This document shows positions 4,409-63,154 of a DNA stretch of 64,000 nucleotides, one piece after another. Position 1 is the stretch's first letter. Every line of letters begins with the position of its first letter. The stretch is taken from the NCBI GenBank assembly GCA_016183235.1, contig JACPFA010000026.1, forward strand, positions 33,284-97,283, written 5' to 3'. This DNA is from Deltaproteobacteria bacterium. Its GTDB lineage: Bacteria; UBA10199; DSSB01; JACPFA01. Below the pieces are notes generated by a model, which saw nothing but the letters and a program-made list of their open reading frames with translations, did no database searches and had not been told where the DNA came from. A program made the translations under genes and the position numbers.

Positions 4409-4665
4409 TAAAAAGTTTTAGTGAAGAGGGCTAAGGGGTTGAGCTAGAATCCGCACCCGTAAAGCCTGCTCGGCTCAAAAAATTATTTATTTTTAATTGA
4501 ATTAGAGTATTCCTTCGTCATCCTCTAATTTCGTCATCCTCTAATTCAAAAAAATAATATAATTTTTTGAACCTCCGGAGCCTGTCCTGAGGCTTTGCGA
4601 AGGAGCTTTACTCCTGCTACAGGTTCTCAACATACCCCCTTAGGCCACTTCAGGAAGACTTTTTA
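4409..4665. repeat. F-type long hairpin element, copy 1
   Basis: The termini AAAAAGTTTTAGTGAAG...CTTCAGGAAGACTTTTT are inverted repeats. The interior holds smaller palindromes and a tandem tcgtcatcctctaatt x2. The termini match the element at 62609-62825. Confidence 0.7.
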
Positions 4666-4690
4666 TATCTCTGCAAATATTTGAGAAGAA

Positions 4691-4931
4691 GTCTTTTCGA
4701 GGTAGGGAGAGGCCAAGGGAGAGCCTTTTACCAGGAGGGCGGCCTATGATAGTTTCTGTCATTGCGAACTTAAGCGGGTGAAGCAATCTCTTCTGCCTAA
4801 GCGATGGGATTGCCACGCTCGCTATCATGGGTCCCCGCCTTCGCGGGGATGACACCGCTCGCAATGACAGAGGCCCTCATAGGCCGACCGGGCGCGGGCT
4901 CTCCATTGGCCTCTCCCTACCTCGAAAAGAC
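4691..4931. repeat. three-level nested palindrome (outer stem, then A-type element, then GC hairpin)
   Basis: The outer arms gtcttttcgaggtagggagaggccaagggagagcc / ggctctccattggcctctccctacctcgaaaagac enclose ggcctatga/tcataggcc. These enclose the ctgtcattgcga...tcgcaatgacag element (4756-4870), which in turn encloses atcatgggtccccgccttcgcggggatgacac (4824-4855). Confidence 0.85.
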
Positions 4932-6690: not shown

Positions 6691-6962
6691 AGAAAGCCCC
6701 TATCCCTTATTTGGTTTCGAGCTCCACGCCCCAGTGAGTTAGTTTGCAAGCTTCATACCCAAAGTTAAGACCTAATGAATTATTTTTTATTGAATAATTT
6801 CAAATAGATAGGATCGTCAATTTTGATGACGGAGGAAGACTGTGCAAGGTCATGGGTTAAAAAAAACCCATTTTATTGGGTTAGGCTTATCAAACACGAT
6901 GATTTTAAACAGGTTTTTATTTTAGTAGAATCTTACAAAAGTGGGGCAAAAAAGACTCTCTT

Positions 6963-7077
6963 CTGTCATTGCGAACCCAGCAGGGTGAAGCAATCTCTTC
7001 TGTTTAAGCGGTGAGATTGCCACGCTCGCTATCATGGGTCCCCGCCTTCGCGGGGATGACACCGCTCGCAATGACAG
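6963..7077. repeat. A-type composite palindromic element with a GC hairpin at its apex
   Basis: Near-identical to 4756-4870 (ctgtcattgcgaaccc...gattgccacgctcgct-atcatgggtccccgccttcgcggggatgacac-cgctcgcaatgacag). It ends 2 nt from the xseA stop codon. Confidence 0.9.
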
Positions 7078-7079
7078 AG

Positions 7080-8346: not shown

Positions 8347-8490
8347 GTGTCATTGAGAAGGAGCGTCTGTCATTGCGAGGCCTGTGTGGGCGGCCTTCTG
8401 TCATTGCGAACCCAGCGGGGTGAAGCAATCTCTTCTGCCTAAGCGGTGGGATTGCCACGCTCGCCAACGGGGCTCGCTCGCAATGACAGA
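8347..8490. repeat. cluster of A-type palindromic elements (short-apex variant)
   Basis: Three gtcattg(c/a)ga units. The 8396-8490 copy has the apex aacgggg where other copies carry a 32-nt hairpin. It supplies the last ~15 codons and the stop of the 8439..9965 ORF. Confidence 0.85.
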
Positions 8491-9965
8491 AGTACCCCAA
8501 TCGGCAGCAACAAACTCAACAACCCCAAATTAAGCCCTTGGCTACTATGTGCCGGGCTCAAACTCATTGTGCATTTCAAAAAGGGTTCGTCTGCTTTGGG
8601 CTCAACCCCATCATCAACTGCGGGGTCTCCCTGCCCTTCGGCAATACCAGGGTCTATCATCGGGGCAGGCGCAGGCGGGGCCTCACCCGGCGTCATATCA
8701 CAGGCATTACCCGCGGCATCTTGGTCATAATCGAGTTGATCGGGGTTTGCCACATTGACGCAATTGTCTGCGTCATCTTTAACCCCGTCGCCGTCTAAAT
8801 CATCGGGCACTTTACTAAAATCTTGATCACAGGCATCGCCCAAACCATCGGCATCTGAATCGATTTGTTCGATATTCGGCTCTAACGGGCAATTATCGAT
8901 TTCATTGGCAAAGCTGTCGCCGTCTTCATCAGCTGGTTTGTAATCTGGGTCGCAAACATTGCCTAAACCATTCTTGTTGCCATCGGCTTGATCGGCATTG
9001 GGCTCCATGGGGCAATTGTCGACCCCATTGGGAATGCCATCACCATCGTCATCTTTTGACGCACTGGCAGGCGGTTCTGACGCATCATCGCTCGCCCCAC
9101 CATTATTATCTGCATTGCCGTTGTTAGCCCCACCGTTATTTGCAGCATCTGCTGCATCCGCAATCAAACCACCATAACCCCAGGCTTCATCCCTGGCTTC
9201 AACCACGGGGTCGATCGGTACTCCATAATCGACCACCACAATCGTGGTATAGCCTTCTGCATCAGCAGCTTCTTCTTCAATCACCGGTTCTTCTTCATCA
9301 CTTGGGGGATCAAAACTTGCTTCATCGTTGATTGCACCTTCATCTTCATCGGGAGGTGGTGGGGGGGGAGGTGGTGGTGGTTCTTGCGGCAATTTCCCTT
9401 CGGAATTTAATTGAACCTTTTTTCCGGAGGCATCTTCAACCCATACGTTTTCAAACTTATTGCTGGGCATGGTACACAAGGCTTTCTTAATATCTTTAGC
9501 TTTCACCGTAAAATTTTTGAAGAGGCTATCGGTGATGTTGATATTAAAAACACACTGGCCTTCGGGTGGGTTGACGTTCAACCCATTGAGCACCACCGAT
9601 TGAGCCTTGGATCCATCAAAAATCAGATTCTTGCCATCACCATTGAGATCATTCTGAACTTCCTGACCATAGTCATTATAAGACACAGGCCCCACCTCTA
9701 TGTTCAAACTTAAAATTGGAATGGGAATATTAAAAGATTTACCAGCCGCAAAATCGATTCTTTCCCGGCATTCTCGAGGTTGGCCATTGGCCCCATTAAA
9801 AACATTGATTTTTCGGCATAAGGATATGACCTTGCCAGGATCGCAAGTTTTGGTGCTCACCACCGAGGCATCGTTGGCATCGGTGCAAAAATCTTCTGCC
9901 TGGGCGGCCTGGGCCAGGAATAAATGAAGCAGCACGGCCCCCAAGATACCCACACCCCTTTTCAT
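8439..9965 (-). CDS. secreted thrombospondin type-3 repeat (Ca-binding) protein with a C-terminal Cys + TM tag
   Basis: The likely start is ATG 9965 (MKRGVGILGAVLLHLFLAQAAQA, a signal peptide), in an ATGA overlap with the upstream gene. It has an 11-Pro run, an acidic linker and three DNCPxxxNxxQxDxDxDGxGDxCD repeats. The C-terminus reads KCTMSLSP...LLSLLLPIGVLLSL. Confidence 0.8.
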   Translation of the reverse strand: MKRGVGILGAVLLHLFLAQAAQAEDFCTDANDASVVSTKTCDPGKVISLCRKINVFNGANGQPRECRERIDFAAGKSFNIPIPILSLNIEVGPVSYNDYGQEVQNDLNGDGKNLIFDGSKAQSVVLNGLNVNPPEGQCVFNINITDSLFKNFTVKAKDIKKALCTMPSNKFENVWVEDASGKKVQLNSEGKLPQEPPPPPPPPPPDEDEGAINDEASFDPPSDEEEPVIEEEAADAEGYTTIVVVDYGVPIDPVVEARDEAWGYGGLIADAADAANNGGANNGNADNNGGASDDASEPPASASKDDDGDGIPNGVDNCPMEPNADQADGNKNGLGNVCDPDYKPADEDGDSFANEIDNCPLEPNIEQIDSDADGLGDACDQDFSKVPDDLDGDGVKDDADNCVNVANPDQLDYDQDAAGNACDMTPGEAPPAPAPMIDPGIAEGQGDPAVDDGVEPKADEPFLKCTMSLSPAHSSQGLNLGLLSLLLPIGVLLSLRASPVGERGNPTA

Positions 9966-14069: not shown

Positions 14070-14405
14070 TTAGGCATGCACTTCGTGATTTTCAAATTCC
14101 CTCTGTCTTACAAATTTAATTTCTAAGCGACATTTTAAAGCTTCAGCAACTTGCTGAAGTTTCTCTACAGAATTTCCCTCGTAATCTGCATCTTCCAATC
14201 TCGCAATAGCAGATTGCGAAGTCTTTAGCAGCTTTGCAAGGTCTTTCTGAGAGAGCCCAGCTTCCATTCTTAATTCGCGCACTTGTCTGGCAATTTGATC
14301 TTTTAACTTTTCTTCCTCATAGAGCCGCTGCCATTCGGGATCTTTTTCTATTCTTCGTTTTAGAATTTCTAAACCGTTTGTCGTTTTTCCCATATTGTTC
14401 TCCAT
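14070..14405 (-). CDS. higA: HigA-type antitoxin (XRE-family HTH)
   Basis: HTH motif LSQKDLAKLLKTSQSAIARLE. It lies downstream of the HigB/Gp49-like gene. The start is taken as ATG 14405, directly after AAGGAG (ATG 14393 is also possible); the track ORF extends to 14456. Confidence 0.75.
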   Translation of the reverse strand: MENNMGKTTNGLEILKRRIEKDPEWQRLYEEEKLKDQIARQVRELRMEAGLSQKDLAKLLKTSQSAIARLEDADYEGNSVEKLQQVAEALKCRLEIKFVRQREFENHEVHA

Positions 14406-14412
14406 TATCTCC

Positions 14413-14784
14413 TTAATTATTTTCAGAATAAGAATGAACTGCAGGATTTTTCTCAAAAGTAATTTTTCTTTTTAAGGCCAGCTCAATTTCTTTTAAAGGC
14501 ACCTTTGATGCTTGCTTAATAATTCCATGACTTAAAACAACTGCTTCTCTCCCATGAAAAAAATACAACAACCGATATTGAATGCCCCGAAGGTGCCACC
14601 GTAGTTCATAAATTCCATCTCTTAGAAAATCTGCTTCAGGACGTCGAAGCGCATTTCCTAATTCGGCAAGCCTATCTAATCTAACCTTGCCTTTCGCGCT
14701 CGCTTTCCTAGGGATCTCTTCCATAAATTCCAAAATTGGAACCGAGTTCCCTTCCTTGTAAAATATGATGTTAACAGCGCTCAT
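14413..14784 (-). CDS. higB: HigB / phage Gp49-like toxin (RelE/ParE superfamily)
   Basis: The sequence ...IIFYKEGNSVPILEFMEE...DGIYELRWHLRGIQYRLLYFFHGREAVVLSHGIIK matches the Gp49/HigB pattern. ATG 14784 is preferred over the TTG start of the track ORF at 14817. Confidence 0.75.
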   Translation of the reverse strand: MSAVNIIFYKEGNSVPILEFMEEIPRKASAKGKVRLDRLAELGNALRRPEADFLRDGIYELRWHLRGIQYRLLYFFHGREAVVLSHGIIKQASKVPLKEIELALKRKITFEKNPAVHSYSENN

Positions 14785-14826
14785 AGGAATTATCTCAAAT
14801 CTGAGGTTGTATTTCAAGGGAGAATA

Positions 14827-21237: not shown

Positions 21238-22121
21238 TCGACCTCAAGGCCTACCTGGCTAATCGCAAGACTCTCATCGAGGCCGCCTTAGAAAAATTTT
21301 TGCTCCCCACCACAACTTGGCCTACAAGTTTGCATCAAGCCATGCGTTATAGCATGATGGCGGGCGGCAAGCGCTTGCGCCCTATCTTGGTATTAGCAGG
21401 CTGTGAAGCGGTGGCTGGGGATATCGAGGTTGCCATTCCTACGGCCTGCGCCATGGAGATGATCCACACCTATTCGCTCATTCACGACGACCTGCCCGCC
21501 ATGGATGATGACGATTTGCGCCGCGGGCACCCCACCAATCACAAAGTTTACGGCGAGGCCATTGCAATTTTAGCCGGTGATTCATTACTCACCGAGGCCT
21601 TTAGCATGATCGCCAAAACGCCTATTCCATCTACACACACCGCTCAACTTTTAAAGGTCATTGCCTTGATTGCCGATGCGGCAGGGTCTGGTGGCATGGC
21701 GGGGGGGCAAGTGGTTGACCTCGAGAGTGAACATAAAAAAATTAGCGCTGAGGAATTAAAAAAAATCCATGTGCATAAAACCGGCAAATTAATTCAAGCC
21801 TCGGTGACGGCAGGGGCCATGCTGGGCAAGGGTTCGGAAGCACAAATTAACAACCTAGGCCATTACGGCATGAACATTGGGCTCGCCTTTCAAATCGCCG
21901 ACGATATTTTAGACATTGAAGGCGGTGAAGCGATTGGCAAAGATGTAGGCAGCGACCTCGCCAAAGAAAAATCGACCTACCCCTCTGTGCTAGGTATGGA
22001 AACTTCGCGCAAACTCGCCCATGATTTAATCGAGGAAGCCCTAGGCAACCTCCAAGGCTTCTCCGCCCATGCCGACCCCCTCCGGGCCATTGCTCAATAT
22101 GTCATTAGCCGTAAAAATTAA
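21234..22121 (+). CDS. ispA: farnesyl/geranyl diphosphate synthase
   Basis: 295 aa with the first Asp-rich motif LIHDDLPAMDDDDLRRG and the second FQIADDILD. Confidence 0.92.
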   Translation: MIDLKAYLANRKTLIEAALEKFLLPTTTWPTSLHQAMRYSMMAGGKRLRPILVLAGCEAVAGDIEVAIPTACAMEMIHTYSLIHDDLPAMDDDDLRRGHPTNHKVYGEAIAILAGDSLLTEAFSMIAKTPIPSTHTAQLLKVIALIADAAGSGGMAGGQVVDLESEHKKISAEELKKIHVHKTGKLIQASVTAGAMLGKGSEAQINNLGHYGMNIGLAFQIADDILDIEGGEAIGKDVGSDLAKEKSTYPSVLGMETSRKLAHDLIEEALGNLQGFSAHADPLRAIAQYVISRKN

Positions 22122-22558
22122 AGGAGAGGATTGACCACTTTTATTTTGGGGAATCGGTGCAGATCCGAATCTGCCGTATAAATGATAGAAATATCATGTT
22201 CTCTCATCAGGGCTACGTGATGGGCGTCGTGAATTAAATTCCCAACCAGTCGGAAATTCCACTTTGATAAGTCCCGCAAATAAGTAAGATGGTCCTCGGT
22301 TTCAGCCAAAATAGTAATGTTAGGAGCGGAAGAAAAAAAGACAACATTTTGTAAGGCCGCTTCAAGGGTTAAGGTTTGCCCCTTAAAAAGTTGGGGATGC
22401 GTCACAACCCTTAAATATTCATAAATGACTCCCCAACTAAAATACCATAAGTCATTTTCTTGAAGGCAATTTTTTAGAAAGTCCTTGGCCTTAGAATGTT
22501 CTGGAAAACTGGAATAAGTTGCATACACGAATAGGTTGGTGTCGATAAATGCCTTCAC
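22118..22558 (-). CDS. vapC: PIN-domain toxin (VapC family)
   Basis: 146 aa starting MKAFIDTNLFVYA (the first acidic PIN residue). It is conserved in position after a small antitoxin gene, and its 3' end overlaps the ispA 3' end by 4 nt. Confidence 0.8.
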   Translation of the reverse strand: MKAFIDTNLFVYATYSSFPEHSKAKDFLKNCLQENDLWYFSWGVIYEYLRVVTHPQLFKGQTLTLEAALQNVVFFSSAPNITILAETEDHLTYLRDLSKWNFRLVGNLIHDAHHVALMREHDISIIYTADSDLHRFPKIKVVNPLL

Positions 22559-22803
22559 AGGTTATTTTTGGAAATTAAATCAAAATAGGTTGAACGATCA
22601 GAAGGATCGAAATGAGCAACCGGTTCTGCCTTGCTACTATTCCAGTGAAATTCGACCTTTTTTTTATTTCGAATTCGATAAGACTGAAGACCTTCGCGCA
22701 ATAATTCATTCACGAGTTCTTTAAAACTGCGCTTCTCTTGCAAAGAAAGAAGCCTTAGTTCTTTTTCAACTTTTGTTTCTAATGGGATGGTCGTCCGATG
22801 CAC
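22555..22803 (-). CDS. vapB: VapB-type antitoxin
   Basis: 82 aa with a 4-nt overlap with vapC. The N-terminus (TTIPLETKVEKELRLLSLQEKRSFKELVNELL) is RHH/CopG-like. Confidence 0.65.
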   Translation of the reverse strand: MHRTTIPLETKVEKELRLLSLQEKRSFKELVNELLREGLQSYRIRNKKKVEFHWNSSKAEPVAHFDPSDRSTYFDLISKNNL

Positions 22804-22858
22804 GCTTTTAAGTTTTATATAAAAACATCAAAATGTCAATATAGAATCATCTTGATGC

Positions 22859-23060
22859 GTAATGCTTCAGTCTTGCAGGGAGAGCGCTTGGGTTATTTCG
22901 TCAGCCGCGCTCCATCGGCGACCCTCATGGGGCTAGCCGGCACGGAAGCCTTCCGGTATAACCGGCTTTCCATGCCGGCTAACCCGCATGGGGGCCCCGC
23001 CGCTTCCGCGATGGCTTCCTCAACAACCCAAGCACTCTCCCTGCAAGACTGAAGCATTAC
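22859..23060. mobile_element. MITE-like palindromic element (E-type, copy 1) with an 8-bp target-site duplication
   Basis: 202 bp with terminal inverted repeats of ~36 bp and one mismatch (gtaatgcttcagtcttgcagggagagcgcttgggtt / aacccaagcactctccctgcaagactgaagcattac). It is flanked directly by CTTGATGC at 22851-22858 and 23061-23068. Confidence 0.8.
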
Positions 23061-23347
23061 CTTGATGCTAAATTGGATTTCAAAGCAAAATCTTCGTAAA
23101 TTGTCTTGCGAGCCCCTAAGGTGAGAATTTCGATTTGTTTTTCTTCCTCAGCCACACGGTATAAAACCCTAAAATGTTTGACGCGCAAGGATCTTAGACC
23201 CGTCAACTCTTTTTGCAGGGCTTTTCCCGCCCAAGGATCTGCCTGGAGGCTATCTAATGCCAACCGAATCAATGATTTTAAAACGGGATGTAATTGACGA
23301 ATGCGTAGTTTTGCCTCGGAGGTATAAATGAGATGAAACGCTCTCAA
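23057..23347 (-). CDS. RelE/ParE-family toxin
   Basis: 96 aa, ...DPWAGKALQKELTGLRSLRVKHFRVLYRVAEEEKQIEILTLGARKTIYE, the RelE/ParE pattern. The stop codon TAA is supplied by the terminus of the inserted element. Confidence 0.8.
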   Translation of the reverse strand: MRAFHLIYTSEAKLRIRQLHPVLKSLIRLALDSLQADPWAGKALQKELTGLRSLRVKHFRVLYRVAEEEKQIEILTLGARKTIYEDFALKSNLASR

Positions 23348-23613
23348 TCCTCAAAAACCTCTTGATGAGAATGCCAGTTTTTAGCACGGCTTTCTTTTAA
23401 GGCACGGTGCAAAGAACGGAGTAAGCTTTGGTCATGCAAAATTTCTAACGTCTCTAACAAACCCTCATATTCCTCAGGGCTCATTAAAATACCCGCGGCT
23501 TGCCCATCTTTCGTAATAGCCACTACACCCCCTTGATTTTGAAGAGACTTGAGCAGCTTCATTAGCTCTCGCTTAACTTGGGTCACAGGTAGAATTTTGT
23601 CGGAATGAATCAT
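23344..23613 (-). CDS. Phd/YefM-family antitoxin
   Basis: MIHSDKILPVTQVKRELMKLLKSLQNQGGVVAITKDGQAAGILMSPEEYEGLLETLEI is classic Phd/YefM. ATG 23613 (after AAAGGA) is preferred over the track start at 23670. Confidence 0.8.
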   Translation of the reverse strand: MIHSDKILPVTQVKRELMKLLKSLQNQGGVVAITKDGQAAGILMSPEEYEGLLETLEILHDQSLLRSLHRALKESRAKNWHSHQEVFED

Positions 23614-23778
23614 TTTAAAGTATCCTTTAAAGGGCCTTTTAAAGGTAAACTTTAAAGCATTCATTGTCAAGGTCTATCACAGAACTTTCATGGTTCTCAC
23701 GGTTCTCAAATTACACAACCCTTTTTTAAAATAACCGATAATTTAACTAGTTTGGGGTGGATTAACGAAGGGGTTTTT

Positions 23779-24969: not shown

Positions 24970-25046
24970 GGAATAACGTAGAACTTAATCGCAAAATAAT
25001 GGCAGGCGCCATGTTGGGAAAGGGTTCCGAAGCACAAATATTGACA
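24968..25046. other. chimeric recombination scar: a copy of the hlyIII 3' end fused to a copy of an ispA-internal segment
   Basis: 24968-25006 matches 26512-26550 (about 37/39). 25001-25040 matches ispA 21815-21855 (about 36/40). The two join at GGCAGG. Confidence 0.7.
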
Positions 25047-25107
25047 CAACCCTTTTTTAAAATAACTGATAACTTGACTAGTTTGGGGTGGATTAAGGGG
25101 TAATAGG

Positions 25108-25938: not shown

Positions 25939-26208
25939 ATGAAATCGAACCTTAAACAAGACATTATCCCTGTAACGGAACTCATGCATCAGGCAGGAAG
26001 GGTTATCAAAAAAATTCGTCAAACTCGTAGGCCTATTTTAATTACTCAAAATGGCAGGGCCGCCATGGTTTGCCTGGACGTTCAAGAATATCAGGAACAA
26101 CTTAAACGGCTCGAAATGATTGATGCCATCCTCGCCGGCGAAACCGCATTTGCATGTGGTGATTTTTCAGAATGGAAAGATTTCGAAGTTCAACTCGATA
26201 AGATGTAA
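25939..26208 (+). CDS. Phd/YefM-family antitoxin
   Basis: 89 aa, IIPVTELMHQAGRVIKKIRQTRRPILITQNGRAAMVCLDVQEYQE. Its stop overlaps the next start by 1 nt. Confidence 0.8.
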   Translation: MKSNLKQDIIPVTELMHQAGRVIKKIRQTRRPILITQNGRAAMVCLDVQEYQEQLKRLEMIDAILAGETAFACGDFSEWKDFEVQLDKM

Positions 26209-26525
26209 TGAAAAGAAAAATCTTTCTCTCCAACCCTGCCCAAAAAGACATTGAGCGAATGATTCAGTACATTCGCCTCGACAAACCCATGGCTGCTGAG
26301 AAATTTAAAGTTCTCTTGAAAAACAAAATTAAATCTTTGGAAAATTTTGCTGAAAGAGGAAGAAAAGTTCCAGAACTTAAAGGAACTTTATTTGAGAATT
26401 ACCGCGAACTTATCATCACTCCTTGCCGCATTATTTATAAACTTCATTCAAAAGAAGTGCGAATTTTAAGAGTGTTACATTCAAAAAGAATCTTCTCCTT
26501 ATTTAGTACTCAAGGAATAACGTAG
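26208..26525 (+). CDS. ParE/RelE-family toxin
   Basis: 105 aa, LSNPAQKDIERMIQYIRLDKPMAAEKFKVLL...ELIITPCRIIYKLHSKEVRILRVLHSKR, the ParE plasmid-stabilisation pattern. Confidence 0.8.
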   Translation: MKRKIFLSNPAQKDIERMIQYIRLDKPMAAEKFKVLLKNKIKSLENFAERGRKVPELKGTLFENYRELIITPCRIIYKLHSKEVRILRVLHSKRIFSLFSTQGIT

Positions 26526-27868: not shown

Positions 27869-28858
27869 TCAAGATCCGTTGGAATTTACGGGTGGAATCT
27901 CTCGGGCCAAATGGCAGGCCACCCACTTGCCAGGTTCAAAGGTTTCTAAGCCGGGCCGTGTGTTTTTGCAAAGGTCTTGGACATACTGACAGCGTTTGTG
28001 AAAAACGCAACCCTCCGGAAGATTGATGGGCGAAGGCACCTCACCGCCCAATAATTTAGGGGGTTTACGCTCCACCGAAACCTCCATCACACTACCCAAC
28101 AGGGCCTGCGTATAAGGATGACGGCATTGAAAAAGCTGATCGGCAGGCAGGGTTTCTACCACGTGGCCCAAATACATCACCGCAATTTCGTCGCTGATAT
28201 GCCGCACCACTTTAATATCGTGGGCAATAAAAATATAGGTGAGGTTCATCTCTTGCTGCAGCTCTTTTAAAAGATTAATAATTTGGGCTTGAATTGAAAC
28301 ATCGAGCGCGCTCACCGGCTCGTCGGCCACGACTAATTGCGGATGCAACATGAGGGCACGGGCAATGCCAATGCGTTGGCGCTGGCCGCCGGAAAATTCG
28401 TGGGGATATTTGCTACGGGCGTTGTGCGGCAGCCCCACTCGGTCGAGCATGGCCTCCACTTGTTTTTGCCGTTCTGGATAATCCCCAATTTTTTGCACGA
28501 TGAGGGGTTCTTCTAAAATGTCCCCCACTCGCATCCGGGGATTGAGTGAAGAATAAGGGTCTTGAAAAATCATTTGAAAATGCCGGCGCAAGGGCCGCAA
28601 TTGCCCCTCGGTAAGATCGGTAAGGTTGGTGCTGTCAAAATAAATTTTGCCTTGGCTTGGGTTAATCAGGCGCATGATCATGCGCCCCAGCGTGGTTTTG
28701 CCACAGCCCGACTCGCCAACAAGACCCAAAGTCTTGCCCTTTTGCAAGGTAAAACTCACCCCATTGACCGCTTGCACTTGGCCAACGGTGCGGCCCAGAA
28801 ATCCCTTGCGGATGGGAAAATGTTTCACTAAATTGTCAACTTTAAGAAGTTCAGTCAT
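27869..28858 (-). CDS. oligopeptide/dipeptide ABC transporter ATP-binding protein (OppF/DppF type)
   Basis: 329 aa with Walker [10 protein letters not shown], signature FSGGQRQR, Walker B LVVADEP and the C-terminal oligopeptide-type extension. Confidence 0.9.
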
Positions 28859-29125
28859 AATTTCATATCATTACAAAGCACATGTTTTCTGTCATTGCGA
28901 ACGATGTCATCCCCGCGAAGTATGCCCTCGACCCCGATCGGGGGGCGGGGACCCATGATACCGAGCGTGGCAATCCGACCAAAGGTCGTCCTGAGGCTTT
29001 AGCCGAAGGATCTCTTACAAACGAAGAGATCCCTCGCAAAACCTCGGGACAATGCTTCGCATTGGATTGCTTCACCCTGCTGGGTTCGCAATGACAGAGA
29101 ATAAAAGGCTCGCAATGACAAAAGA
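28859..29125. repeat. 267-bp mosaic of A-, GC-hairpin- and C-type repeat modules between two ATPase genes
   Basis: It contains ctgtcattgcgaac, gtcatccccgcg...cggggacccatgat, cgagcgtggcaatcc, the C module gtcctgaggctttagccgaaggatctcttacaaacgaagagatccctcgcaaaacctcgggac, and two tcgcaatgaca termini. Confidence 0.9.
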
Positions 29126-30127
29126 TTAATAATTCAGACATCGTAAATTCTGCCCTTCTCCTACGTACTTTTCGCTTGGCACTTTTAAGTGACAAGCCGC
29201 GCTCACATTAAAGCAGCGGTCGGCAAAACGACAGCCCTCTGGTAATTCTGCCAAATCAGGGACCTTGCCAGGAATTGACGCAAGAGTTCCGGTTTTTTGA
29301 CGCAAGGTGGGGATGGAATGCAGTAGCCCTAGCGTGTAGGGATGTTTGGGTAAACTAAGTAGCCGCCCTACGGGAGCCTGCTCCACCACCATGCCGGCGT
29401 ACATCACCAACACTTCATCACAAATTTGCGAAACCACCCCTAAATCGTGGGTGATGAGGATGACCGCCATGCCCATCTCGGCAACCAATTCACGAATTAA
29501 TTGTAAAATTTGCGCTTGCACCGTTACATCCAGCGCGGTGGTGGGTTCATCGGCAATTAAAATATCGGGGTGGCAAGACAAGGCCATGGCGATCATCACC
29601 CGTTGCCGCATGCCACCGCTCATTTGGTGAGGGTAGTCATCAATGCGACGTTCGGGGTCAGGGATTTTAACCTTGGTTAACATTTCAATCGCCAACTCGC
29701 GGGCCCGCCCTTTATTGACCTTTTGATGCAAAATAATGGCCTCCATAATTTGTTGGCCCACCGTATAAACCGGGTTGAGGCTGGTCATGGGTTCTTGAAA
29801 GATCATGGCGATCTTGGCCCCTCGCACCTCGCACATTTTTTCTTCGTTGAGTTTCAATAAATCAACCGGCAAGGCAGGCTGCTCTTCTTGGCTGGTAAAT
29901 AAAAAGACTTCTCCAGATTCAATCTTACCCGGGGCATCAACCAGCCGCATTAAAGATAAACTAGTGACCGTCTTGCCACAGCCCGATTCGCCCACAATCC
30001 CCAAAATCTGCCCCCGCCGTAGGTCAAAACTCACGTGGTCGACCGCCACGAGTTTTTTGCCTTTAAGCGTAAAGGTCGTAACCAGGTCTTTGACTTTTAA
30101 CAATAATGGATCCGCAGCTTTTTTCAT
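29126..30127 (-). CDS. oligopeptide/dipeptide ABC transporter ATP-binding protein (OppD/DppD type)
   Basis: 333 aa with Walker [10 protein letters not shown], signature MSGGMRQR and Walker B ILIADEP. Confidence 0.9.
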
Positions 30128-34383: not shown

Positions 34384-34565
34384 TGCGCGGAACTCTGTCA
34401 TTGCGAACCCAGGGGACTCTCTGTCATTGCGAGCCCAACGGGCGTGGCAATCCCACCGGTTAGACGCAGAGAGATTGCTTCGCCCTGCTGGGCTCGCAAT
34501 GACAGAGAATTCCCTTGGCTCGCAATGACAGAGAATTCCCTTGGTTCGCAATGACAGAATAAAGC
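34384..34565. repeat. array of gtcattgcga / tcgcaatgac units, including a 26-bp tandem repeat
   Basis: Three forward and three reverse termini. ctcgcaatgacagagaattcccttgg is repeated in direct tandem with no spacers. Confidence 0.9.
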
Positions 34566-36237: not shown

Positions 36238-36292
36238 CACCATTGCGAAGTAAGAGAGATTGCTTCGCCCTGCTGGCCTCGCAATGACACAG
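36238..36292. repeat. A-type palindromic unit
   Basis: accattgcgaagtaagagagattgcttcgccctgctggcctcgcaatgacac. Confidence 0.8.
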
Positions 36293-43677: not shown

Positions 43678-44973
43678 TTATCCAAAAAACCGCAGGGCTT
43701 CCTTTAACTCAGGTTTTCCTTGTGCATAAACTTCCAGAGAAGTTCCTTGCTGCACGGCTTCCCAGGCTTGTTGCAGGCTTTTCGCCCCCGCACTCACCCC
43801 CATGGGATGGTTAAAGACCCCACGCCCCGAAATAAAACCAAAATCAACGTGGCCAATTTTTTCATACACGCGAGGCAGGCTACCCGCCCAATCGCTGCCA
43901 CCGGGGATGGGAAGGCTAGCAGAAATCTGCCCCAGGGGGGCCAAACAGGCTGCCACGTTGGCCAAGACTTCTTCGTCGGTATTGTGCATGCGCTCGCCAA
44001 AACCGGAAAGGCCAATCATGTCACAGCCGGCCAAACGCAAGAGTTTGGTCCACACCACGGTATGCACCCCAAAATACTGCATGCGCGAGCTAATGGCCTC
44101 ACCGGCAAAATGACCCATTATAGGTAGTTTAGAAATTTTGCGCAAACTCACCACCGACGAAATGCCCATGGTGAAAGGATTCACCATCACGGCATTACTT
44201 CCGCTTGCTTCTACTTTTTGGTAATTCGCCAATAATTCGTCGGCTTCTCCACTGATATTCATGATCATCATTTTCTTATCGCCAGTTTCTTTTTCAGCAG
44301 CCTGCCGCCTATGCCCACATTGCTTGGCCCGCCGCTCGAGGGGCGAATTTACCTGATCAGCCAACATTTCATCGTCTTTGGTAATGTCTAACCCCCCCAA
44401 CCAGGCTTCATAAGCCCGCTGGGCAAAATCCCCCACGGGCAAGCCTAAGTTGGGCTTTACCACACCAATAAAAAAAGGCCTCCCCTTCACGCCCAAACTT
44501 TGACGCAAGCCCGCTAGCCCAAATTGGGGGCCCACAAAATTTTGCAAAAAGGTATCGGGAAGTTCCAGATTCATCAATTTAATAGTGGTAATGCCCGGAC
44601 AATAAAAGGGGCCCTCGCCAGCTAGCGCGGTTAAAAGATTAGCGAGCCTTGGCCCAAAATTAATATGGGGGTGAGCCACCCTCACCCGGCAGCGAGAATA
44701 GCGTTCTGAAATCCTGGCCGCCTCTGGGTATAAAGGCTTGCTCGATTCCCCCACCACTTCTAGATTCAAAACAAAGGCCCCGTGAATTTTGCGAAAATCT
44801 TCTTTCACCCCCGGGCGTTTCCACTGCACAGTACTTTGCTCACAAGCCAAGCTCGCCGCCGCAAGCTGTGGCTCAACTGTGCATTCAAAAAAATAATCGG
44901 CCAGCACATATTTTTCTAAATCAAGCTGTTCGGGATTAATAAAAAAGCCTTCGGCCTCTTGGAGGGTCAACAT
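43678..44973 (-). CDS. RuBisCO large-subunit-like protein (form IV RLP), not a carboxylase
   Basis: 431 aa. GRPFFIGVVKPNLGL...AWLGGLDITKDDEML aligns to RuBisCO GCTIKPKLGL...GGLDFTKDDEN. K175, K201, D203 and E204 are kept. K177 is N, and the H294/R295, H327 and K334 positions are substituted in my manual alignment. Confidence 0.8.
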   Translation of the reverse strand: MLTLQEAEGFFINPEQLDLEKYVLADYFFECTVEPQLAAASLACEQSTVQWKRPGVKEDFRKIHGAFVLNLEVVGESSKPLYPEAARISERYSRCRVRVAHPHINFGPRLANLLTALAGEGPFYCPGITTIKLMNLELPDTFLQNFVGPQFGLAGLRQSLGVKGRPFFIGVVKPNLGLPVGDFAQRAYEAWLGGLDITKDDEMLADQVNSPLERRAKQCGHRRQAAEKETGDKKMMIMNISGEADELLANYQKVEASGSNAVMVNPFTMGISSVVSLRKISKLPIMGHFAGEAISSRMQYFGVHTVVWTKLLRLAGCDMIGLSGFGERMHNTDEEVLANVAACLAPLGQISASLPIPGGSDWAGSLPRVYEKIGHVDFGFISGRGVFNHPMGVSAGAKSLQQAWEAVQQGTSLEVYAQGKPELKEALRFFG

Positions 44974-45094: not shown

Positions 45095-45367
45095 ATGAGA
45101 ACCACAATGACAGTTGATGACGACATAGCCATCAAATTAAAAAAACAAGTCCGCGAATCGGGGAAATCTGCTAAAGAAGTGATCAATGATTTGTTACGGT
45201 TGGCTTTGTTAGAAAAAAGCCGGCTAAAGCCAAAAATTCTTAAGCCTGTTGAATTTGAACCGACTATTTTTAAAGGAAAACCGGGGCTTATGCCAGGCTA
45301 TTCTTGGGAATTGTCAGCCGCCCAAATCATGGATCAGCTTGACGAAGCCGATATTATTCACCCATGA
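45095..45367 (+). CDS. vapB: VapB-type antitoxin
   Basis: 90 aa, MRTTMTVDDDIAIKLKKQVRESGKSAKEVINDLLRLAL (RHH-like), with an ATGA overlap with the PIN gene. Confidence 0.7.
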   Translation: MRTTMTVDDDIAIKLKKQVRESGKSAKEVINDLLRLALLEKSRLKPKILKPVEFEPTIFKGKPGLMPGYSWELSAAQIMDQLDEADIIHP

Positions 45368-45789
45368 TTTTACTCGATATCAATTTCCTCATTTACGCCC
45401 ACCGTTCAGATTCTCCTCACCATGCTCAAGCGTTAAAGAAATTGAAAGAATTAGCTCAAACAGGTGCACCTCTCGGGCTCACTAGTTTTACAATGGTTGG
45501 TTTTTTACGGATTGTTACAAATCACCGAATTTTTAAAGAACCCACATCCTTCAATCAGGCCATTGCCTTTATCGATACGATCTTCAATTTACCTCAAGCT
45601 CACAGGCTTGAACCGCAAGAACGCTATTGGGATATTTTAAAGGCCGCCATCCGCGATACCGCCTCCACTGCCAACTTGATTTCAGATGCCCACCTAGCAA
45701 CGGTTGCTACCGAACATGGGGCTTCTATTCTCACGATGGATGCTGACTTTAGGCGCTTCAAAGGAATCAACGTCCTTAAGTGGAGCTAA
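45364..45789 (+). CDS. vapC: PIN-domain toxin (VapC family)
   Basis: 141 aa with MILLDINFLIYAH, a later SDAHLATVA and ILTMDADF, the PIN acidic residues. Confidence 0.8.
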   Translation: MILLDINFLIYAHRSDSPHHAQALKKLKELAQTGAPLGLTSFTMVGFLRIVTNHRIFKEPTSFNQAIAFIDTIFNLPQAHRLEPQERYWDILKAAIRDTASTANLISDAHLATVATEHGASILTMDADFRRFKGINVLKWS

Positions 45790-62608: not shown

Positions 62609-62825
62609 CCTAAAAAGTTTTACTGAAGTCGGCAGAGGCTTCCAGGGGTCCGTGTCGCCTGGGGGTTACGGCCCCCAGGCGCACTCAAAGTCTCAGCTTT
62701 CACGGCTATATAGCCATAGAGGTGAAAACTGGAGTTTACCCTGAGCACTTCGCCAAGACTCAGTGTAAACTCCGCGAAGGGACAAACCCCTTCCAGCCTC
62801 AGCCAACTTCAGTAAAACTTTTTAT
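62609..62825. repeat. F-type long hairpin element, copy 2
   Basis: Termini AAAAAGTTTTACTGAAGT / ACTTCAGTAAAACTTTTT. The interior holds several perfect small hairpins, e.g. GCCTGGGGG-ttacgg-CCCCCAGGC. It is followed by the 20-bp unit TTTATAT(T/C)TCTGCAAATATT x2 (62821-62860). Confidence 0.8.
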
Positions 62826-62870
62826 ATTTCTGCAAATATTTTTATATCTCTGCAAATATTTGTATGGATA

Positions 62871-63089
62871 TAAAAAGCGAGGGATGCGACTTTGCGGTTG
62901 AGTTAGCTTTTTCGACCCATCGCGGAATCGCCGGGGCCCCCAATGCGGGCTAGCCGGCATGGAAAGCCGAGGCCCGCCGCAGGCGGGAACGCGGAAGGCT
63001 TCCGTGCCGGCTAGCCCCATTAGGGTCGGCGATGGAGCGCCGGGTCGAAAAAGCTAACTCAACCGCAAAGTCGCATCCCTCGCTTTTTA
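62871..63089. repeat. E-type palindromic element, copy 2 (same core as 22907-23014, different outer stem)
   Basis: Outer arms taaaaagcgagggatgcgactttgcggttgagttagctttttcgaccc and their complement. The core 62917-63040 is about 94% identical to the reverse complement of the E1 core. Confidence 0.85.
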
Positions 63090-63154
63090 GTGCAACAATT
63101 TGAATATTTATTTGCGGTGATGACTTTATTCTCCAGGAGACTTTAACCCCCACT

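Follow-up and report, generated by a model that had tools for sequence, protein, structure and literature searches.

We analyzed 64,000 nucleotides of contig JACPFA010000026.1 from a Deltaproteobacteria bacterium assembly (GCA_016183235.1, positions 33,284 to 97,283; this whole stretch is called the window below), in which a 202-bp element with inverted-repeat ends occupies the extreme 3' end of a ParE/RelE-family toxin gene. The element is very probably a non-autonomous DNA transposon, a miniature inverted-repeat transposable element (MITE) of the foldback type, with a hairpin that spans its whole length. It is flanked by an exact 8-bp direct repeat, its presence leaves the toxin sequence unchanged, a second copy at an unrelated locus carries an 8-bp duplication of its own, and the stem of the hairpin covaries between the two copies. 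We infer mobility from these two independent target-site duplications (TSDs), and not from an empty site.

An 8-bp target-site duplication at a toxin stop codon

The element and the sequences that adjoin it are listed here in window coordinates.

22859-23060, minus strand: focal element, a 202-bp non-coding foldback MITE with termini GTAATGC...GCATTAC; the plus strand of its core is the minus strand of the window
22851-22858, unstranded: left TSD copy, CTTGATGC, the same as 23061-23068 and abutting the element
23061-23068, unstranded: right TSD copy, CTTGATGC, encoding the last toxin codons gca tca ag-
22859-22906, unstranded: left inverted-repeat arm (outer stem), 48 nt, from the repeat finder
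23013-23060, unstranded: right inverted-repeat arm, whose final bases ...TTAC give the G of AGG and the toxin TAA stop on the minus strand
22907-23012, minus strand: GC-rich core common to the family, homologous to 62917-63040 and to the cores of metagenomic loci L005, L015, L016 and L019
23057-23347, minus strand: ParE/RelE-family toxin gene, 96 aa, from the list of open reading frames (ORFs); PF05016 ParE_toxin, 29.9 bits; identical to NCBI MBI2336335.1
22847-22849, minus strand: inferred ancestral toxin stop codon TGA, from in-silico restoration; the insertion now parts it from the gene

The original prediction, which was made from the sequence alone, described a 202-bp element between 8-bp direct repeats, and this was borne out both by reading the sequence and by the repeat finder. 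The two 48-nt arms are 88% complementary at a spacing of 106 nt. Their outermost 26 nt pair perfectly, and this 26-mer occurs at only these two places in the 64 kb (0 expected by chance); the terminal inverted repeats of ~36 bp proposed earlier agree with these 26 perfect nt if one mismatch is allowed. As read in the window, the left junction is ...gaatcatCTTGATGC/GTAATGCTTCAG... and the right junction is ...CTGAAGCATTAC/CTTGATGCtaaattg..., with the slash at the boundary. By our own arithmetic from local base composition, two random 8-mers would match at fixed boundaries with a chance of ~2e-5 per locus. The GC content of the element (0.53-0.58) stands against a background of 0.35-0.45.

The toxin ORF ends in ...LASR, encoded by ...gca tca agg TAA; this stop codon (23057-23059) belongs to the terminus of the element. 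When the element and one copy of the repeat were deleted in silico, the end of the gene read ...gca tca aga TGA, exactly as had been foreseen, and the reconstructed empty site read …AGAATCATCTTGATGCTAAATTGG…. The restored ORF encodes an identical 96-aa toxin, and the earlier description of the event as silent at the protein level is exact. The silence arises because the element starts with G-TAA: insertion after base 2 of a codon yields NNG followed by TAA, in this case turning AGA into AGG, both of which encode Arg. In a scan of every insertion point in the toxin ORF, position 287, the actual one, was the only intra-ORF point that left the protein unchanged.

Two toxin-antitoxin gene pairs in tandem flank the insertion.

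23344-23670, minus strand: Phd/YefM antitoxin gene; gene callers take an 89-aa form starting at 23613
22118-22803, minus strand: pair downstream of the toxin, made up of a vapB-like gene (22555-22803) and a PIN-domain vapC gene (22118-22558)

The gene first labelled relE is a ParE/RelE-superfamily toxin paired with the Phd/YefM antitoxin, and the gene labelled vapB has no Pfam match but precedes the PIN-domain gene. Before the insertion, the upstream region of vapB would have comprised 44 nt abutting the toxin stop codon. It includes a TTGACA hexamer on the minus strand, between the element and vapB (plus-strand 22834-22839), which is a consensus match only. This region stays joined to vapB, and the element separates it from relE by 210 bp. 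The insertion sets a very stable 200-nt hairpin between the two tandem operons, and the hairpin may affect relBE or vapBC transcripts.

Both junctions were reached in independent Logan assemblies from five runs (SRR12113385, 390, 419, 428 and 432), the contigs of which were found by exact look-up of the toxin, antitoxin and VapC. Contigs on the relE side read ...gcatcaagGTAATGCTTCAG..., those on the vapB side read ...CTGAAGCATTACgcatcaagatgattc..., and all of them are filled and break inside the element. Recovery of the junctions in independent assemblies means that the focal element is therefore no artefact of the assembly of this metagenome-derived genome. The first 19 nt of two Logan contigs (L021:1-19 and L022:1-19) are untrimmed Nextera adaptor, (A)GATGTGTATAAGAGACAG.

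A second complete copy with its own duplication

The only other complete copy with GTAAT-type ends lies in a metagenome contig (L016:187-388). It is also 202 nt long and aligns with the focal element without gaps over the whole length; its left end is GTAATGCC and its right end, ...ACCTTAT, is slightly decayed. Its left flank, TTTCAAGT, and its right flank, TTTCAAGC, agree at 7/8 positions; at a 1-nt offset both flanks read TTTTCAAG and agree at 8/8. The genes around L016 are unrelated to those at the focal copy: it sits between a response-regulator/HD gene, the TGA stop of which falls inside the right repeat, and an epimerase gene, the start codon of which is 24 nt from the left end. A third, truncated copy (L015) has CATTCGGA before its GTAAT end.

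Two findings had been named in advance as fatal to a TSD: that CTTGATGC forms part of the termini in other copies, and that copies with the same termini lack duplications. Neither was obtained, as the flanks differ in both L016 and L015, and L016 has its own 8-bp repeat. Because the flanks differ at these loci, CTTGATGC is locus-specific target DNA and not a part of the element. The focal element combines the small size and terminal inverted repeats of a MITE with an absence of coding capacity (see below), and a locus-specific TSD is present at both the focal copy and L016. We also considered whether the outer arms could be a separate MITE in which the core is nested, and rejected this because the focal copy and L016, both of GTAAT type, are collinear over all 202 nt.

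In each of the two complete copies, the five bases directly before the element on the core strand are TCAAG. The empty sites reconstructed for them (22840-22858 joined to 23069-23080 at the focal locus, and L016:170-186 joined to 397-410) each read (A/T)TCAAG(.)ATG. A preference for (A/T)TCAAG·ATG targets is probable, with n = 2 cases. Both insertions are located at most 3 nt from a stop codon, in very short intergenic spacers of 44 and ~21 nt.

Covariation in the hairpin stem

The focal element folds with -155.1 kcal/mol on the minus strand (z = -17.6) versus -137.6 kcal/mol on the plus strand. Aligning it with L016 in RNAalifold gave 81 pairs, among which 14 are changed on both sides and still paired, 3 are changed on one side through a wobble, and none is broken. 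As a control for the counting of pairs, the 3' partners were slid by 1-3 columns, whereupon the share of paired cells fell from 100% to 32-42% and the number of two-sided changes from 14 to 0-1; in 500 shuffles the observed values were never reached. Counted directly, the outer 42 positions of the stem comprise 25 unchanged, 11 compensatory, 2 wobble and 2 broken, the broken ones both at the decayed right end of L016. Wobble pairs at columns 37/166, 66/140 and 89/118 are kept in both copies on the same strand, and the three full copies tested all fold better on one same strand (-155 vs -138, -176 vs -172 and -119 vs -106 kcal/mol). Judged from these comparisons, it is the hairpin itself that is conserved between copies. 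Compensatory pairing together with strand-specific wobbles indicates constraint on some single-stranded form of one particular strand, be it a DNA intermediate of transposition or replication, or an RNA.

The better-folding strand is the toxin sense strand at the focal locus and is antisense to both neighbours at L016, L019 and 62871-63089. A shared role as a co-transcribed 3' untranslated region (UTR) is unlikely because the favoured strand is antisense at these other loci; a DNA intermediate, or transcription from a promoter of the element's own, is possible. An intrinsic terminator was ruled out, since no U-tract follows the hairpin. Rfam gave no match in the window at the gathering threshold, and under permissive settings the best matches at the locus were miRNA-like hairpins with 17-21 bits, against cut-offs of 45-106.

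One ORF in the element is prone to mislead annotation.

22893-23057, minus strand: 54-aa ORF, present with the same length at L016:190-354; called by gene callers; an annotation trap

It begins at the ATG of GTAATG, overlapping the toxin stop as TAATG. We rejected it as a real small gene, given 16 nonsynonymous versus 3 synonymous differences between the copies, distributed 4/12/10 by codon position. Spurious ORFs of 54-84 aa and broken short-read assemblies are effects of the element on annotation.

A rare family from groundwater and aquifers

The family was found in six places, two in the window and four in metagenomes, and every sample with a named source is a groundwater or aquifer metagenome. 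Its members are whole-length hairpins of ~200-220 bp that have in common a GC-rich core of ~110 nt with the motif GCCGGCATGGAAARCC…GGAAGGMTTCC. The focal core (minus strand) and 62917-63040 are 79% identical over 124 nt, with stretches of 92-96%, and by our own count 53-54 nt separate the terminus from the core in the focal copy, 62871-63089 and L015. The second member in the window and the arm types of the family are as follows.

62871-63089, plus strand: second family member, with the same core, different arms (TAAAAAGCGAGGG...) and no flanking duplication
Arm type GTAAT: focal copy, L016 and L015; duplication in both complete copies, L015 truncated
Arm type TAAAAAGCGAG / TTGAAGCGAG: 62871-63089 and L005; no duplication at 62871-63089, arms of L005 decayed
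Arm type CGCAATC: L019; no duplication

Copies were sought in protein collections through two frames that are open across the core, as gene callers sometimes call ORFs there. Frame Y yielded one protein (P0005) and through it L005, from Hainich groundwater, while frame X yielded P0006 and P0007 and through them L016-L020. L016, L017 and L018 are one locus in three independent assemblies, namely JGI 3300025308 and two from ENA (one of them, ERZ978281, groundwater); L019 and L020 come from the Rifle aquifer. A gapped DNA pattern of the two arms, run against JGI metagenomes, recovered one truncated copy, L015. Four further proteins (P0008-P0011) were discarded as unrelated repeat proteins; they came from a profile search of 1.8 billion representative proteins that added nothing real. 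A 20-mer core pattern had 0 matches in genome and metagenome collections, a 19-mer core pattern had 9 matches in 185,579 representative genomes that were all due to chance on inspection, the core pattern had 0 matches in a viral contig collection, and blastn against plasmids returned no match.

The family is rare, lineage-restricted and previously undescribed, with no sequence relative in plasmids, Rfam or representative genomes. Other copies with the same termini and 8-bp duplications had been named as a check. L016 has ends of the GTAAT type and its own 8-bp repeat, whereas the outer arms of the focal copy are unique in all data searched and only the core is common. In the 64-kb window, the copy with the focal termini is accompanied by a single core relative that has other termini. 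Core relatives with other termini and without duplications leave open that the core may be a module common to elements moved in different ways.

A candidate mechanism and its alternatives

A locus-specific 8-bp duplication next to perfect inverted termini is what a DDE-type transposase with an 8-bp staggered cut characteristically leaves behind. On the MITE reading, a transposase acting in trans would have made such a staggered cut of 8 bp in the target, GCATCAAG on the toxin sense strand, and linked the GTAA...TTAC ends of the element to it, after which gap repair would have duplicated the 8 bp. Entry after base 2 of the last Arg codon would have changed AGA-TGA into AGG-TAA with the toxin the same, and the insertion would have been effectively intergenic and tolerated.

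The most likely candidate for the mobilising enzyme is a DDE transposase of the insertion sequence (IS) family IS66, with an IS1-type enzyme as the alternative, because IS66 ends start with GTAA and IS66 makes 8-bp duplications. Members of the IS66 family have 20-30-bp terminal repeats starting with GTAAGCG and characteristic 8-bp direct repeats (PMC11946415), and 8-bp direct repeats also accompany the IS66 members of Paracoccus (PMC3281130). The focal terminal repeats likewise begin with GTAA and adjoin an 8-bp direct duplication. They differ in that the GCG of the consensus GTAAGCG is not matched by the ends GTAATGC, GTAATGCC and GTAATAG, that no tnpA, tnpB or tnpC was found nearby, and that the element is a whole-length hairpin with a conserved centre and variable arms, rather than a junction of two IS ends. 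IS1 makes duplications of 8-9 bp. Its right end, GGTAATGACTCCAACTT (verified in E. coli), has GTAATG as in the focal terminus, but the focal left junction is cGTAATG where IS1 has GGTAATG, and no IS1 transposase is encoded in the window.

Several observations weigh against a MITE mobilised in this way. The 64-kb window has no gene for any kind of transposase, no empty-site allele was present among the contigs from the five runs, and no second copy with the focal outer arms turned up in any data searched. Conservation in the family is lowest at the termini, although inverted repeats to which classical transposases bind are usually the most conserved part. The core relatives with other termini (62871-63089 and L019) have no duplication. 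The match to IS66 consists of four bases (GTAA) and the duplication length only, and the IS1 right end GGTAATGACTCC matches the focal terminus at 12/20 positions in our own comparison. Regarding the empty site, homologues of the toxin are at most 65% identical, with C-terminal tails of variable length, and are too distant to serve as one; its lack is an absence of evidence in a single population, and not evidence of immobility.

Small MITE-like elements of other Bacteria provide further points of comparison. Duplications are 2-3 nt for QMITE1 and TA for Correia elements. Like the focal family, the QMITE1 and QMITE2 elements of Coxiella and the Correia elements of Neisseria are small, non-coding inverted-repeat elements with direct repeats; they have no sequence similarity to it, and the focal family has a very low copy number in the available data, unlike QMITE and Correia elements. 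Both groups are whole-length hairpin MITEs that reach a few bases into the 3' ends of genes. The stable stems of QMITE1 and QMITE2 have been discussed as candidate RNase III substrates (PMC5896051). In enhC of Coxiella Dugway, an insertion supplies C-terminal amino acids, with a stop codon immediately downstream (PMC5896051). The type of event, a MITE at the 3' end of a gene, is already well documented.

The focal family also has less usual features, namely a rod-like stem of ~80 pairs kept by compensation, termini less conserved than the centre, and 8-bp duplications, which together leave a modest residual probability of something mechanistically distinct. It is conceivable, though we consider it unlikely, that a ~200-nt rod-like hairpin is recognised by its GC-rich core and stem shape, and not by its termini, and is inserted with an 8-bp duplication at (A/T)TCAAG·ATG sites near stop codons, its ~80 base pairs being kept by compensatory evolution on one strand in the manner of REPINs (hairpins of repetitive extragenic palindromic, or REP, sequences). 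If true, this would imply that a structure-reading transposase works on a foldback substrate in a partnership so far unrecognised or, alternatively, that the hairpin serves both as a mobile element and as a structured RNA, in a 3' UTR or antisense.

That the element is instead primarily a functional structured RNA or a module of the 3' UTR, for example an RNase III site, a stabiliser of the mRNA or an insulator that separates relBE from vapBC, with the flanking repeat incidental, seems to us very unlikely as an account of its origin. The strong stem covariation and strand-specific wobble pairs would fit such a role, as would the fact that the better-folding strand is the toxin sense strand, on which the hairpin would form the relBE 3' UTR; for Coxiella QMITE2, co-transcribed MITE hairpins have been discussed as candidate RNase III substrates (PMC5896051). 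However, the repeat is 8/8 exactly at the boundaries and recurs with another sequence at a second locus, the favoured strand is antisense to both flanking genes at L016, L019 and 62871-63089, and the hairpin has neither an Rfam match nor a terminator-like U-tract after it. An RNA role is compatible with later co-option of a MITE and does not replace insertion as the origin.

Transposition as single-stranded DNA was weighed in the same way. REPINs lack a TSD and are shorter; each consists of two conserved REP ends, and they occur together with a single-copy gene for a REP-associated tyrosine transposase (RAYT). The focal family resembles them as a non-coding hairpin with compensatory changes in its stem, and differs by its duplication, its variable ends and the absence of any RAYT seen in the window. 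Y1/HUH (IS200/IS605) transposition is not known to make a target-site duplication. A REPIN-like hairpin moved by a RAYT or an IS200/IS605-type Y1 transposase, with the core as the recognised structure, would account for a hairpin over the whole length whose abundant compensatory changes recall those that keep REPIN stems (PMC3116915), for G·U/G·T wobbles kept only on the one strand where every full copy folds better, and for variable termini around a conserved inner part. It is nevertheless very improbable indeed, as both complete GTAAT-type copies are flanked by 8-bp repeats, the window encodes neither a RAYT nor a Y1 transposase, and the element is ~2x the typical length of a REPIN. Finally, TCAAG before the element and ATG after the duplicated 8-mer at both complete copies could suggest an attachment-site core used by an integrase or Xer recombinase, but this is barely credible given that the other three 8-mer positions differ between the two loci and match within each, as duplication of the target predicts and a fixed attachment core does not, and the same holds for a chance repeat (~2e-5 per locus, as calculated above) and for an assembly artefact, since both junctions were recovered independently in several assemblies.

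Other palindromes and repeats in the window

The focal insertion had been put forward as the clearest evidence that the palindromes of this stretch are, or were, mobile. The insertion itself is confirmed, but it is silent on the other palindromes in the window, which are members of different families.

The second family member (62871-63089) has the ends TAAAAAG...CTTTTTA, without a duplication, and lies within a short tandem array of the 20-nt motif TATATCTCTGCAAATATTTG, two units of which are at 62823 and 62843, while a third seems to have been split by the element. The array, in the region 62811-63110, has parA on one side and the 3' part of mnmG/gidA on the other. The same arrangement of motif and hairpin was seen by eye in L005, in another metagenome, beside an apparent tRNA gene. 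Two other long hairpins, at 4409-4667 and 62611-62824, have common termini of ~30 nt (TAAAAAGTTTTAsTGAAG...) and unrelated interiors; both are preceded by ...CACC and directly followed by TATyTCTGCAAATATTT, which suggests site-specific insertion into a motif, or a larger composite unit.

A separate repeat family bounded by CTGTCATTGCGA...TCGCAATGACAG occurs at 4691-4931, 6961-7079, 8366-8497, 28888-29120, 34393-34560 and 36253-36292, and is also carried by L019. Copies are found inside operons too, for instance between two opp ABC ATPase genes (28858-29128). A 119-bp copy nested at the tip of the 4691-4931 hairpin, which is unrelated to the focal element, is 92% identical to the free-standing copy at 6961-7079, and this nested copy attests independently to the movement of small palindromic elements in this genome.

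The window is unusually rich in toxin-antitoxin modules. Further genes of this type are found at 14070-14817, 26208-26525 and 45364-45789, encoding a Gp49/HigB-like toxin with a helix-turn-helix partner, a second ParE toxin and a second PIN-domain protein. Near the focal locus, a 39-nt coding fragment of ispA (21809-21847) is repeated 3.2 kb downstream at 25001-25039 with 90% identity. Directly beside this repeat is another of 53 nt (23713-23765 and 25044-25096, 94%), which belongs to the upstream region of a 405-aa ORF at 23752. There are hints here that the block of two toxin-antitoxin pairs and the 405-aa ORF came by rearrangement or duplication. A gene resembling that of the RuBisCO large chain was observed at 43678-44973.

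Conclusion

The focal locus is a clean and fully reconstructable case in which a GTAA-ended MITE could enter the last codons of a gene and still be neutral, its own terminus giving a synonymous codon and a stop codon. With a conserved core, covarying arms, and duplications in some of its members, the family is small and tractable enough to explore which features of a foldback substrate a transposase actually reads.

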